The position numbers and the translations under genes were made by a program. From a virus, in IMG/VR virus record IMGVR_UViG_3300042887_004758, positions 32,001 to 96,000 of that record: a DNA stretch of 64,000 nucleotides, one strand, 5' to 3'. The stretch's first letter is position 1. Every line of letters starts with the position of its first letter. This document shows positions 25,381 to 45,780 of this stretch, in pieces. Under the pieces are notes generated by a model, which was not told the origin of the DNA, searched no databases, and saw only the letters and a program-made list of their open reading frames with translations.

Positions 25381-27777
25381 GTGGGAATACAAAATATCCG
25401 AAATCATTCCAACAACTCCATTAAATTGAGATTGGATACTTCTGAGTATTATGATTTTTATCTATCTAAAGATGAAATTGAATATGATCAGGAGACCGTA
25501 TTTTCAACAAATTTGATCGGTTTTGATGACGGAAATGTATTACCTGTTAATATAAGATTGTGGGATCCGGATTGTTCACCTCAACTCGAATTATTTTACG
25601 ATGATTTTGAAACTGATAATAATTTAGTATCGGATAAGTTCTATCCTTTTCCTGATTTAGTTGATGCATCTTGTTACTCGTTGAGTGGAATTTGTGATGT
25701 TGGATTAACAGGAATTGACAATGGACTCACAGACAGAATGAGTGGTGAAACACTCTATTACACAAGAGGATTATTAGATTCAATTAACAAATTTGACAGA
25801 TTAACATACGATAGACATCTTAAATTAATTTCGGTCACATCAAATGTAAGATCACCCAACTCAAGATTTTCAGGTATAACGGCAAACACCCTATATAATA
25901 TAGTTTCAAAACAAGAGGCGGGTATAGGATACTACCAAGAATTATATGGTGGTTTTTATCAAGGTTTTTACAAACTATACGAATATGATTGGCAAATATT
26001 ACCCGAAAGATATGAACTCGGATGGTCTATGGAGACGGTAATAAAGCCAAGAATATATGATGAATTTGAACCCGGCGCAGGTGAGACCACTCTAAACGAA
26101 ATCTATCCAAATAACGCAGGGATTTTCTTCTATATGGGGACAAGAGCGGAAGATAAATTCTATCATTATGCCACAGGTCATCCTGAAAGTTACACAGCTT
26201 ATACACGAGTAACCGAAGAATTAAGTTGTTTGAAAACTTGTTCTTGTACTTTGACGGCATTCACTTCAGATTGTTACAATGTTTACCCAATATCAGGTGA
26301 CACCTATCAAGGAACGGATTGTACCGTTTGTGGAAATGCATGTGAACACAAAGTGGTTGCCATACCACCCAAAGATCCAACGATAGATGTATTATCAAAT
26401 TCATTTGCAATACGATTATCGGGTGACCCAAAAAACCCAAAAATTAATATAAGGACAATTACCATCACGGGAGCATGTCAAACAACTGCGGATTGTGAAA
26501 CACACGAATATTATTTAACAGGATATACAATCAACAACATTTATTCCAATATTGGAATTTACGATTTCTGTTCGGGAAGTACCAACCAAACTGACTTTTT
26601 GAATACTGAAAAATGGTTACAGGTTGATGTCGTATTCAAACGATATACTTTCTACGAGGGATGTGACTTATTCTATGAAGGTGGAATTGGGGAAATGAGT
26701 TCCTTAATTTACCCTGCAACTGAAAGAGGTGACACTTTAAGTTTAATTCAACCACCTTATACTCACGACCAAGAAAAAGAATACCCCGTCCAAAGAGTCG
26801 TTATGAATAGAGATTTCATTGACTCAAAAGATAAAAGACTTGGATCTTTGAAAGTATATCTCAATGGTTATTTATTTATGATCGTAGAAAACTTTGAGGA
26901 AATTATTCCAAGACCTTTGAATACCGAAAAAGAAAAACAAATCGGTGTAAGTTATTCAATGTCATGGGGTGGTGGTACTCAAGGATTAAGGGAGAATCTA
27001 ACATTTAATAGTTGTACAGGAACCACTTACCAACAGGATCCTGAGTTATTTCCCGATACAGTTTTGTCAGGTACATCACTTTCACAATTAGAGACCGGTA
27101 TTTTATTAGAAAAGTACTTTGGGGGAACTTTTGATGGTGCAATTTCAGAATTTAGATTCTATGCCGAACCATTGAATGGTGGACAAGTTCAACACAATAA
27201 CAGAATTTTAAGAAATACTTATGATCTCTTTGATTATTTCTGTTTGGATTGTGAAAATTTCGAACCTTTACCAACACCATCACCAACCCCAACACCTACA
27301 GTTACACCAACGGTCACCAAAACTCCAACAAATACGCCAACAGTAACACCAACACTTACACCTTCAATTACCCAAACAATAACACCTACTCAAACAATTA
27401 CTCCCACACCCACAGAAACACCTACACCCACGGCAACAGTAACACCCACAGAAACACCTACACAAACCCCTACACCATCTATTACTCCGAGTATCACACC
27501 AACAATATCTTTAACTCCAAGTCAAACAGTTACACCTGGACTTACTCCAACACAAACACCAAGTGTAACCCCCACTCAAACTCCAACACAGACACCAACA
27601 GTTACGACGACACCAACGGTGACAACTACTCCAACACCAACTCAAACTCCAACTCAGACTCAAACTCCAACCGTATCACCGACAACTACTATAACACCAT
27701 CAATTACGCCTTCTATTTCAGAAACACCTACCGCTTCGGGTATAAGAACTGTCTTTGTTAGATTTAATACGCTGTAA
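25381..27777 (+). CDS. Virion protein, LamG/ConA-like domain plus mucin-like Thr/Pro-rich tail
   Basis: LKVYLNG..FDGAISEFRFYAEPL LamG-type signature; long TPT repeat tract at the C-terminus; GTG start. Confidence 0.7.
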   Translation: MGIQNIRNHSNNSIKLRLDTSEYYDFYLSKDEIEYDQETVFSTNLIGFDDGNVLPVNIRLWDPDCSPQLELFYDDFETDNNLVSDKFYPFPDLVDASCYSLSGICDVGLTGIDNGLTDRMSGETLYYTRGLLDSINKFDRLTYDRHLKLISVTSNVRSPNSRFSGITANTLYNIVSKQEAGIGYYQELYGGFYQGFYKLYEYDWQILPERYELGWSMETVIKPRIYDEFEPGAGETTLNEIYPNNAGIFFYMGTRAEDKFYHYATGHPESYTAYTRVTEELSCLKTCSCTLTAFTSDCYNVYPISGDTYQGTDCTVCGNACEHKVVAIPPKDPTIDVLSNSFAIRLSGDPKNPKINIRTITITGACQTTADCETHEYYLTGYTINNIYSNIGIYDFCSGSTNQTDFLNTEKWLQVDVVFKRYTFYEGCDLFYEGGIGEMSSLIYPATERGDTLSLIQPPYTHDQEKEYPVQRVVMNRDFIDSKDKRLGSLKVYLNGYLFMIVENFEEIIPRPLNTEKEKQIGVSYSMSWGGGTQGLRENLTFNSCTGTTYQQDPELFPDTVLSGTSLSQLETGILLEKYFGGTFDGAISEFRFYAEPLNGGQVQHNNRILRNTYDLFDYFCLDCENFEPLPTPSPTPTPTVTPTVTKTPTNTPTVTPTLTPSITQTITPTQTITPTPTETPTPTATVTPTETPTQTPTPSITPSITPTISLTPSQTVTPGLTPTQTPSVTPTQTPTQTPTVTTTPTVTTTPTPTQTPTQTQTPTVSPTTTITPSITPSISETPTASGIRTVFVRFNTL

Positions 27778-27779
27778 AA

Positions 27780-43620: not shown

Positions 43621-43626
43621 AAAAAA

Positions 43627-45780
43627 ATGCCAACTAATGTACTCGTGGGTCTATCGAATGACACAATAGGTGTTGAAAATTATGATATTTACGTTAGTGA
43701 TTGTAACGATGGTATATTGGTTTATGTGACAGGTATAACATTCGAACAATTCGAATATACTTTTGATATAGAACAATATTTAACGGGATATTCAGGATGT
43801 TATAACTATTTTATTTCAGGAGATACAGGATGTATTTGTGAAGGACAATACACAAATATACCCGCATCCCCAACTCCAACAAAAACCGTCACACCAACAA
43901 TAACTCCGACCAATACGGTGACTGCGTCTATAACACCAACAAATACAATCACACCCACGAATACCATTACTCCGACAGTAACACCGACAATTACACGAAC
44001 ACCAACATTAACACCAACATTGACTAGAACTGTTACTCCAACATCAACTGTAACTCCAACCCCTCCCTGTCTTTGTTATGAAAACATTCAATTGAGTTTG
44101 GTGTGTGATATTCTTGAAGGTCAAAGCTGTCCTGAGTTTATTTTTGTAGATTATACAACTTGTGGTGGTAGTCAAGCGTCCATTCAATTAAACTACGGAG
44201 CTTCAGGTATTTTGATCTCAGGTTGTTCGACACTCAATTCATTCCAAGTAAGTAGTTCAACTCCAATCTTGGATGGTCAATTAGTAGTTGATTTCTCTAA
44301 TGCTGATTGTTGTGCTGATCCACCTCTCTCTCCGACACCAACACAAACCAGCACATCTACGAATACACCAACACCCACACTTACACCTACCGTGACACCT
44401 ACAAGTCTCAATTTCGCGGTTAGTATTTCAGGATGTTGCTTCCCGAATGTTCTTTCTACAACATTTACATTCCCAACCGCAGTATTTGTAGGAAACAGTT
44501 TTTATTGGGAAGGAAACCAACAATTCCCCGCACAGTGTTATTTGATCACAAATGTAATTTCTGTTGGTGATGTTTTCGGAGCACCGATCGCCACGATCGA
44601 AGATGTGTATGATCAATGTTCGGGATGTACAACCGTTAATGTTTGTCCTACACCGACACCAACAGTTACTCCGACCGTAACAGTAACACCTACAGTAACA
44701 AGTACACCAACATTAACCCCAAGTGTTACAAGAACAGTCACTCCAACGTTGAGTCAAAACCTAATATATGCAAGAGTAAGTCCCTGTTGTCCTGAATTAT
44801 ATCCTGGACAGACGAATATAAGTGTCGTGATGCCAGCATCATCTTATAGTCTCCCGCAGGTTATAGTTGCAGACAATAACTGCTTCACGTTAGGTGTTCA
44901 ACTTCCTCAACCAGGTACGATAAATTTGGTTTATCAATCAACATTTACTGCGGGGTCTGGAGATTGCGCATCATGTCTCTTAGTATATCCATGTCCAGTA
45001 ACACCAACTCCAACACCAACGGTCACTCCAACACCGACACCTTCTACTTATTTCAAGTTGACCCCTTGTTGTGATTATGACCCATCAATAACAATTGAAC
45101 AAACGGTTGCTAGTTCCGCGTACAACTTCATTAACGGTAGAAGATATATACTCGATGGTGTGGCATATACAGTAGCGGGTCCATTAACCGGTCCTTCTTC
45201 TTACGTTCCATCAACAATAAATGGACCATATAACACATGTTCATTGGCTTTAGCGGCTCCTGTTGTACAGTTCTCTTGTTATACACCACCCGCACCTACA
45301 CCTTCCTCTACACCAGCATGTGATTGTAGAAGATACGTAAGTGTTTCGTATTTGTGTGATGAGATCGACCAAACAACATTCTGTCAAGGGTCGATAGATT
45401 TCAAATATACCGATTGTGAAACTTTGGAAGAAGTGGTTTCATCTATCGAGTTGTACAACAGTAAAGTTTTACAAGAATGTGTCGTATTCAATAGTATAGA
45501 AGCAATCACCGAACTGAACCCCGCGGAATTGTTCATCGTAGAAGTAGGACAGAGTGAGTGTTGTGGATCTGCCCCTCAACCTGATAGTTTGGTTTGGGAG
45601 GTCAGAAATTGTGTCACAGGACTTGTTTCTACCATGTCAGGTCCTTCGACATTAACAAATGGTAACGTTGTAAGAACTTCTGATCTACAATGTTGGTTGG
45701 TGTTAAATTTGTCACCACAACCTACTTACCAATACGTGTATTCGTCAACTCAAGTGTCTTGTAACGATTGTTTATCATAA
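43627..45780 (+). CDS. Cys-rich, TPT-repeat virion protein (paralog of 41998)
   Basis: YDIYVSDC...CYNYFISGDTGCICE; repeated CC..CY..C..C modules separated by TPT linkers. Confidence 0.7.
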   Translation: MPTNVLVGLSNDTIGVENYDIYVSDCNDGILVYVTGITFEQFEYTFDIEQYLTGYSGCYNYFISGDTGCICEGQYTNIPASPTPTKTVTPTITPTNTVTASITPTNTITPTNTITPTVTPTITRTPTLTPTLTRTVTPTSTVTPTPPCLCYENIQLSLVCDILEGQSCPEFIFVDYTTCGGSQASIQLNYGASGILISGCSTLNSFQVSSSTPILDGQLVVDFSNADCCADPPLSPTPTQTSTSTNTPTPTLTPTVTPTSLNFAVSISGCCFPNVLSTTFTFPTAVFVGNSFYWEGNQQFPAQCYLITNVISVGDVFGAPIATIEDVYDQCSGCTTVNVCPTPTPTVTPTVTVTPTVTSTPTLTPSVTRTVTPTLSQNLIYARVSPCCPELYPGQTNISVVMPASSYSLPQVIVADNNCFTLGVQLPQPGTINLVYQSTFTAGSGDCASCLLVYPCPVTPTPTPTVTPTPTPSTYFKLTPCCDYDPSITIEQTVASSAYNFINGRRYILDGVAYTVAGPLTGPSSYVPSTINGPYNTCSLALAAPVVQFSCYTPPAPTPSSTPACDCRRYVSVSYLCDEIDQTTFCQGSIDFKYTDCETLEEVVSSIELYNSKVLQECVVFNSIEAITELNPAELFIVEVGQSECCGSAPQPDSLVWEVRNCVTGLVSTMSGPSTLTNGNVVRTSDLQCWLVLNLSPQPTYQYVYSSTQVSCNDCLS

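Follow-up and report, generated by a model that had tools for sequence, protein, structure and literature searches.

A GT60-family enzyme block among Thr/Pro-rich proteins points to possible cytoplasmic O-glycosylation in a lake-water jumbo phage

What does a phage do with a glycosyltransferase (GT) of the family with which protists initiate mucin-type glycosylation, and why is its gene packed among others that encode long threonine/proline (Thr/Pro) tracts? The question is raised by a locus in a 64,000-nucleotide stretch of DNA (the window), which comprises bases 32001-96000 of the 109,981-bp IMG/VR record IMGVR_UViG_3300042887_004758. We put at roughly 55% the probability that the phage encodes a cytoplasmic O-glycosylation system acting on the Thr/Pro linkers of its own proteins, with a glycan that varies from strain to strain. 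The record is 36% complete according to CheckV and is a fragment of a jumbo phage, since its near-complete relatives measure 274-322 kb. Its phage-type genes include PhoH, dUTPase, PolB, a helicase, a head-tail-adaptor-like gene and a tail sheath gene (window 56981-60163). Near-identical copies of the stretch occur in lake-water metagenomes from about 19 studies.

The core of the locus is a run of eight enzyme genes (Table 1). The first encodes a GT60-family protein that matches the profile PF11397 (GlcNAc) with 258.1 bits (cut-off 21, E 2.2e-76) over profile positions 1-43 and 91-349. Its residues D92-S93-H94, by sequence alone a metal-binding Asp-x-His/Asp motif of the GT-A type, are invariant in 13 sequences down to 51% identity. 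A sequence-only reading of this DNA had proposed eight transferases and methyltransferases here, and profile searches confirmed the enzyme families: the GT60, PLOD, GT10, CmcI-type and HtrL assignments stand, and those of the GT-A open reading frame (ORF) at 33186, the methyltransferase at 30312 and the GT2 half of the last protein are weak. Among known structures, the PLOD-like GT matches the LH3 GT domain (2.4e-5) and the GT10-type enzyme matches the H. pylori fucosyltransferase FucT over residues 71-304 (5zoi and 2nzw, 1.9e-11); sequence and profile searches of the PDB gave no match for HtrL+GT2. The CmcI-type methyltransferase reaches 3e-5 with NF045824, far under the cut-off of that model, and NCBIfam added nothing beyond HtrL_YibB and this sub-threshold rhamnosyl O-methyltransferase match. 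The methyltransferase at 30875 has no Pfam match and is recognized from ESM Atlas features (0.95) and template-modelling (TM) scores of 0.75-0.78 to Methyltransf_11 clusters. For the ORF at 33186, with no Pfam or NCBIfam match, the lead is one Atlas cluster at 0.96, 20% of whose members carry Glyco_transf_8.

The Pfam match of the GT60 enzyme stops at about residue 292, and a C-terminal extension of ~120 amino acids (aa) remains (residues ~300-414, window 29963-30307). The extension is conserved even in the enzymes of the type carried by the cultured phage XacN1 (e.g., W383, R384, W398, P399, S401 and W406). By analogy with the lectin domain of GT27 enzymes, which is similarly positioned, it may be a substrate- or glycan-binding add-on.

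The enzyme genes and the genes around them form an operon-like series of 16 co-directional genes with gaps of -29 to +62 nt, in which a promoter and terminator scan found no convincing plus-strand terminator. No signal peptide or transmembrane segment was found in any of the 16 proteins, as had been claimed for the substrates, and cytoplasmic action therefore fits.

The five tract genes that had been proposed, starting at 25381, 36228, 38520, 41998 and 43627, are ORFs at exactly those coordinates and encode the proteins named A to E here. With a 12-residue filter for Thr/Pro/Ser tracts, they have 162, 340, 122, 128 and 208 tract residues, respectively. The pooled tracts (960 residues) consist of 40% T, 22% P, 8% S and 7% V, so that Thr exceeds Ser by 5:1, and Pro is found at -1, +1 or +3 of 88% of the tract Thr. 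Being Thr/Ser/Pro-rich, repeat-like and variable in length, the tracts resemble mucin-like acceptors. They are confined to these five of the ~113 ORFs in the whole record, all of which flank the enzyme block, and the seven matches of a TPTPTPT-coding pattern in the record all lie within them (reversed-pattern control, 0). The tract DNA repeats are mostly imperfect (72-80%), which argues that the tract pattern is kept up at the protein level. The layout is that of beads on a string, with Cys-containing modules of 75-185 aa linked by tracts of 30-200 aa (202, 50 and 88 aa in protein B). BLASTP among the masked modules identified modules common to B and C, to C, D and E, and to B and protein Y, which is encoded directly after the tract genes. 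A 203-aa minus-strand ORF with V/G/T/F repeats (window 36572-37183) is almost certainly no gene, as it is the antisense of a protein B tract.

Relatives of the GT60 enzyme are numerous, with at least 7,552 in the database and 183 matching stretches in IMG/VR viral contigs. We compared 80 fetched loci related to this one. GT60 is found in all 80 and HtrL+GT2 in 79, and the genes of the middle cassette between the two are swapped, each occurring in 3-25 loci. The order is protein A, variable Thr/Pro ORFs, GT60, the variable middle cassette and HtrL+GT2, followed by a Y-domain protein that may or may not carry a Thr/Pro tail, more Thr/Pro ORFs and PolB. The Y-domain protein, which shares the N-terminal domain of B, comes directly after HtrL+GT2 in 72-73 loci, and same-strand Thr/Pro ORFs are detected within 10 kb in ~65 loci, on both sides of the enzymes. 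Nine GT60-positive records have no tract ORF nearby; the three longest of these (78-200 kb) have tracts elsewhere and the remaining six are fragments that are 4-22% complete. The base of protein A is present in 28 loci and in 1,923 database proteins, where the C-terminal additions vary between Thr/Pro tails, Peptidase_C1, LamG and Fib_succ_major; the length of the tail varies even among strains that are 98-99% identical. Proteins C, D and E, and the tract-free protein X encoded between C and D, are private to this phage. One complete relative, G001 (322 kb), encodes giant Thr/Pro-linked Cys-rich modular proteins in three regions (L088-L091), including an ORF of 2,834 aa that is cut at the end of the fetched stretch and one that runs from L088 into L089 with ~3,800 aa in total.

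The proposed co-occurrence of GT60 with Thr/Pro-tract genes across jumbo phages was borne out beyond this clade. All examined GT60-positive genomes of at least 78 kb have Thr/Pro tracts, and they comprise this clade, the phages G009 and G008, and the XacN1 group. The GT60 proteins of XacN1, Xoo-sp13, CM1 and RAS14 are 45-50% identical to the one studied here, and HtrL+GT2 is 38-43% identical over its full length in XacN1-type phages. XacN1, Xoo-sp13 and RAS14 have 6-16 tract-pattern matches each; those of XacN1 were checked and are in frame in many ORFs (ORF232-237, 325, 372 and 384). G009 shares a GT60 of 39% identity and no other protein of the window, and 27 of its 28 tract matches flank that gene within 3 kb, beside ORFs whose PHROG matches carry the annotation 'virion structural protein'. 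In G008 the GT60 is 34% identical and 44 in-frame tract matches lie 30 kb from it. Eight GT60-negative jumbo phages (2.75 Mb) gave no tract-pattern match. A rough Fisher test of the four GT60-positive lineages against the eight negative phages gives p ~0.002, with controls picked by hand and shared ancestry possible. Our literature search found no paper linking GT60 to Thr/Pro tracts in phages.

Just upstream of GT60 in G008, an ORF (L229:747-1757) has an N-terminus that by eye resembles GDP-mannose 4,6-dehydratase, a hint that the cassette can be coupled to the supply of deoxyhexose; no GDP-mannose dehydratase was found in the present record, which is only 36% complete. The complete 108-kb phage G013 was considered as a third divergent lineage and rejected, as its 'TP' matches, within 1.2 kb of a distant GT60-like gene (27% identity), proved on translation to be a (VG)n repeat read in antisense. 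The repeat belongs to a 735-aa protein (L227:10332-12539, - strand) that has a Hint/intein-like C-terminal domain and is encoded immediately upstream of the GT60-like gene.

The earlier suggestion that the tract proteins are virion fibres is upheld in part: one N-terminal domain has a moderate fold match to BppU-N and relatives have structural genes nearby, from which we infer the location. The model of the Y domain (predicted local distance difference test (pLDDT) 79, predicted TM score 0.71) matches BppU-N-type anchors of baseplate, tailspike, minor-tail and neck-passage proteins in BFVD, including several BppU-N at TM 0.56-0.62. Among PDB baseplate chains, the domain shared by Y and B matches 6v8i_BJ of 80alpha (Z 8.5), 4v96_AA of TP901-1 (Z 7.9) and 3uh8_A (Z 7.3); PDB sequence and profile searches gave no match for it. 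A 1,413-aa tract protein of G001 starts with the same BppU-N-like domain; after its A-like and tract ORFs, that genome has a clear tail fibre gene. In XacN1, the tract protein ORF325 (3,313 aa) follows baseplate wedge genes, and the virions contain at least two periodate-Schiff-positive glycoproteins (PMC5852040). Going by the modelled fold, the N-terminal domain probably anchors at least protein B to the tail or baseplate. For protein A, a fold model of residues 1-625 from a 19-sequence alignment had a mean pLDDT of 34 and was not used, and PDB sequence and profile searches gave no match.

From these families and their arrangement we infer how the tracts could be glycosylated, in which order and with which sugars. 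Late in infection, the soluble GT60 enzyme would add a first alpha-linked N-acetylhexosamine (HexNAc) to Pro-flanked Thr in proteins A to E. This sugar would most likely be N-acetylglucosamine (GlcNAc) from the UDP-GlcNAc pool of the host. The conserved HtrL+GT2 enzyme would add the next sugar or sugars, and the strain-variable middle cassette, here the PLOD-like GT, the GT10-type enzyme, the possible GT8-like GT and three methyltransferases, would decorate the chain. The expected product is a set of stiff, protease-resistant, glycan-coated spacers between small Cys-rich modules. For methylated and possibly fucosylated glycans, as first suggested, candidate enzymes are indeed present; these glycans are deduced from accessory genes that occur in just 3-25 of the 80 relatives. 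The term 'mucin-type' is apt for the mucin-like tracts and the GT60 family. In the strict sense it does not apply, because a secretory pathway is missing and nothing points to N-acetylgalactosamine (GalNAc): mucin-type initiation belongs to the Golgi and secretory route, enzymes and substrates here have no signal or transmembrane segment, and the host is bacterial. A wider version, in which a widespread, lake-abundant group of jumbo phages has a mucin-initiating pathway like that of protists at work in the cytoplasm of bacteria and wears a dense, strain-variable virion 'glycocalyx' on tail-anchored Thr/Pro stalks, should be taken as tentative, being in our judgement less likely than not as a whole. 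If it holds, the serotype of the glycocalyx would be set by a swappable enzyme cassette, and the phage GT60 genes would amount to a large branch, in prokaryotic viruses and so far unrecognised, of the family behind mucin-type initiation in protists.

Several observations weigh against glycosylation of the phage's own linkers. At least five phages that are complete or nearly so have genuine Thr/Pro tracts but no GT60, so that tracts do not need GT60, the implication runs from GT60 to tracts and not the reverse, and tracts could be plain linkers. Of 27 searchable records in an IMG/VR-wide pattern scan, a frame check dropped seven as not truly Thr/Pro, and GT60 is found in only six of the 20 true-tract viral records left. 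The GT60-negative jumbo phages (Atu_ph07, SCTP-2, RaK2, phiKZ, G, KVP40, RSL1 and PTm1) were hand-picked, and the co-occurrence could be partly inherited, because the GT60-positive lineages may share deep ancestry; XacN1-type phages likewise place GT60 near the polymerase. Many tract genes of complete relatives lie up to 100 kb from GT60, as the giant genes of G001 do. On the enzyme side, no solved structure was matched by the GT60 protein in a PDB sequence and profile search, and the GT2 half of HtrL+GT2 (0.006) is below the Pfam cut-off. Generic Ig-like folds score about Z 7, just under the BppU-N matches (Z 7.3-8.5), and neither B nor Y matches Pfam BppU_N (no Pfam family at E <= 0.1). The Schiff-positive glycoproteins of XacN1 virions are known as stained bands only.

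Part of this evidence suits other explanations. The enzymes might glycosylate the Thr/Pro proteins without these being virion parts, if they are soluble or lysis-released products that bind matrix, serve as decoys or manipulate the host. This is unlikely given the BppU-N-like anchor on B and on the 1,413-aa protein of G001, the neighbouring tail fibre, virion-structural and baseplate-wedge genes in G001, G009 and XacN1, and the glycoproteins in purified XacN1 virions. It does agree with the lack of detectable structural homology of C, D, E and X in library searches, with an anchor-like domain on B and Y only, and with the position of the block, which adjoins the replication genes PolB, exonuclease and dUTPase. 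Alternatively, the transferases might make or alter a non-protein glycan of the host lipopolysaccharide (LPS), capsule or envelope, for superinfection exclusion or receptor masking, with the tracts as unglycosylated linkers nearby. HtrL_YibB takes its name (the family name only) from an E. coli LPS-core gene neighbourhood, more genes for GT2 and GT4 enzymes are found upstream in the opposite orientation, other phages have tracts without GT60, and the middle cassette varies as O-antigen loci do. We nevertheless regard this as improbable: the block lacks any flippase, polymerase, lipid-carrier transferase or membrane segment, GT60 members are known with protein acceptors only (PMC8724618), and PF11397 matched none of 14 control cellular genomes. 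An envelope glycan would also leave unexplained why GT60 is shared by all tract-rich jumbo lineages tested and missing from the eight tract-free ones, and why tracts flank it so tightly in G009.

Hypermodification of the phage DNA via hydroxymethylated bases, which would evade restriction, has little to recommend it. To our knowledge, GT60, GT10 and PLOD-type enzymes and sugar O-methyltransferases are outside the families known to glycosylate DNA, and they are unsuitable for this role. Nor does this reading account for the association with Thr/Pro tracts. The locus has no hydroxymethylase gene of its own; complete relatives have genes of the thymidylate synthase family, but these ThyA-like genes are far from the locus and none is present in the 110-kb record. 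In its favor are the adjoining PolB, dUTPase and exonuclease genes and the glycosylation of phage DNA by diverse GTs, which is well documented (as cited in PMC12619734). We give the least credence to the possibility that GT60 acts in the manner of the Skp1 pathway, placing GlcNAc onto hydroxyproline or one specific target instead of Thr. Gnt1, the founding member, transfers GlcNAc to hydroxyproline in the cytoplasm, the phage enzyme is also predicted to be soluble and cytoplasmic, and Pro makes up 22% of the tracts, but the prolyl-hydroxylase domain 2OG-Fe(II) (PF13640) is absent from the record, from four relatives that are 93-100% complete and from XacN1. The preference of 5:1 for Thr over Ser, in Pro-flanked contexts, is typical of Thr-directed initiation and favors modification of the Thr/Pro linkers.

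Table 1. Genes of the locus, with positions in the window; locus counts refer to the 80 related loci
Feature	Position	Strand	Description
Protein A	25381..27777	+	~625-aa Cys-containing conserved base, 162-aa Thr/Pro tail, 11-residue C-terminal end
Trypsin-like serine protease candidate	27780..29000	+	Variable accessory gene between protein A and GT60; 3/80 loci
GT60-family glycosyltransferase	29063..30307	+	Predicted polypeptide alpha-HexNAc transferase; PF11397
Putative methyltransferase	30312..30872	+	Methyltransf_24 E 0.039, below cut-off; 3/80 loci
Class I S-adenosylmethionine (SAM)-dependent methyltransferase	30875..31507	+	ESM Atlas; 6/80 loci
GT_PLOD-like glycosyltransferase (LH3-type GT domain)	31479..32228	+	PF25342 3e-16; 11/80 loci
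GT10-type alpha-1,3-fucosyltransferase-like enzyme	32206..33189	+	PF00852 4e-11; 8/80 loci
Possible GT-A (GT8-like) ORF	33186..33899	+	ESM Atlas lead alone; 10/80 loci
CmcI / rhamnosyl O-methyltransferase-like sugar methyltransferase	33902..34531	+	PF04989 3e-9; 25/80 loci
Two-domain HtrL_YibB + GT2-like protein	34528..36210	+	PF09612 4e-11, TIGR02192 5e-14; 79/80 loci
Protein B	36228..38462	+	BppU-N-like N-terminal domain (1-125), three tracts between Cys-containing modules
Protein C	38520..39752	+	Small N-domain common to D/E, three Thr/Pro tracts, 180-aa module common to B
Protein X	39772..41979	+	735-aa Cys-containing, tract-free, embedded among tract proteins
Protein D	41998..43620	+	N-domain 43% identical to that of E, two long Thr/Pro tracts, 20 Cys
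Protein E	43627..45780	+	~75-aa Cys-rich modules (40 Cys) linked by Thr/Pro tracts
Protein Y	45791..46165	+	Lone BppU-N-like domain, 36% identical to B residues 1-125

Among the other genes, protein X has no family match in library searches, and we count it in the system by its position only. The protease candidate, absent from the sequence-only reading, matches the protease family phrog_20754 (9e-15) and, weakly, Pfam Trypsin. Three more GT genes lie upstream on the minus strand (window 16813-18713 and 21603-22817). They are GT2-like, GT1/GT4-like and a GT4-like member of phrog_7162 (1.5e-45), and a gene of the phrog_7162 type recurs in 14 of the 80 loci. Further upstream, the minus strand of window 5802-10179 encodes a 927-aa SusC-like TonB-dependent receptor (CarboxypepD_reg, Plug and barrel) and, after it, a 530-aa protein whose C-terminus is a sorting domain for type IX secretion. 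These two genes are odd cargo for a phage and indicate a Bacteroidota host, which we consider probable on the strength of this gene content. A 247-aa ORF at window 16101-16844 has a weak match to sigma-70 region 2, and window 50409-51935 encodes a full Fe/Mn superoxide dismutase fused to ~280 further aa.

We know of no demonstration of virion-protein glycosylation by phage-encoded enzymes outside the mycobacteriophages. If the Thr/Pro linkers are indeed glycosylated, jumbo phages that infect Gram-negative bacteria, as well as a freshwater clade of great abundance, would join the mycobacteriophages in this respect. A variable glycan coat could affect adsorption, resistance to proteases and grazing, particle stickiness and antibody recognition, and phage receptor-binding structures would be under-described by protein sequence alone. 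The phage enzymes also bear on the origin of the GT60/GT27 mucin-initiating enzymes of protists. Cultured relatives of the group infect Xanthomonas and Stenotrophomonas, and the idea is directly testable because the cultured XacN1 has both core enzymes and glycoprotein bands.

The closest known counterpart is the ORF334...ORF330 cassette of XacN1, also found in Xoo-sp13, CM1 and RAS14, in which orthologous GT60 and HtrL+GT2 genes lie a few genes apart near the DNA polymerase, in genomes that likewise encode many proteins with TPTVTPT-style tracts. The middle genes differ, being a carbamoyltransferase and a GT9 there and PLOD-like, GT10 and methyltransferase genes here, as do the hosts, which are Gammaproteobacteria there and probably Bacteroidota here. 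The authors of the XacN1 study tentatively credit the phage GTs for the glycoproteins (Yoshikawa et al. 2018, PMC5852040), and make no connection between Thr/Pro tracts and either GT60 or the glycoproteins.

Characterised GT60 enzymes are polypeptide alpha-GlcNAc transferases that act on mucin-like Thr/Ser or on the hydroxyproline of Skp1 (PMC8724618). The phage enzyme belongs to the same family as those of T. cruzi and Dictyostelium by hidden Markov model comparison, with a DxH-type motif and Thr/Pro-rich acceptor-like domains; the gp72 protein of T. cruzi has a near-identical Thr/Pro domain, of which ~50% by weight is carbohydrate (PMC3630849). Like Gnt1 of the Skp1 pathway, it would be soluble and cytoplasmic, in this case with no prolyl hydroxylase found. 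The protist mucin enzymes, in contrast, act in the Golgi on secreted proteins, a secretory route that is missing here, and they lack the additional C-terminal region of ~120 aa of the phage enzyme, whose activity is predicted from sequence.

Mycobacteriophage GTs were proven to modify the structural proteins of their own phages (Freeman et al. 2023, Cell Host Microbe, as cited in PMC12619734 and PMC12363180). Phage-encoded GTs act on the phage's own proteins in the host cytoplasm in both cases, proven there and predicted here. The mycobacteriophage glycans are reported on the C-termini of capsid and tail-tube subunits, in ~60-kb siphophages of Actinobacteria. Here, in a fragment without identified capsid or tail-tube genes, the proposed sites of attachment are long Thr/Pro linkers inside modular, fibre-like jumbo-phage proteins.

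Self-encoded glycosylation is also found in giant eukaryotic viruses, with the capsid glycans of PBCV-1 and the fibrils and PLOD-like L230 of Mimivirus. These viruses likewise use soluble GTs of their own, sugar methyltransferases, and PLOD-type and fucose- or methyl-adding enzymes, and decorate virion surface proteins independently of the host ER and Golgi. They differ in their eukaryotic hosts, in the initiating chemistry (N-linked in PBCV-1 Vp54) and in the virion proteins modified, and have no ancestry in common with tailed phages.

Modular cellulases offer a parallel for the expected product, as their small globular modules are also separated by Pro/Thr-rich spacers, which O-glycosylation stiffens and shields from proteases (e.g., PMC3490864). 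There the host machinery acts during secretion, unlike the phage-encoded, cytoplasmic enzymes proposed here, and the phage tracts are far longer, reaching 202 aa in this phage, with more than 1,000 tract residues in some of its relatives.

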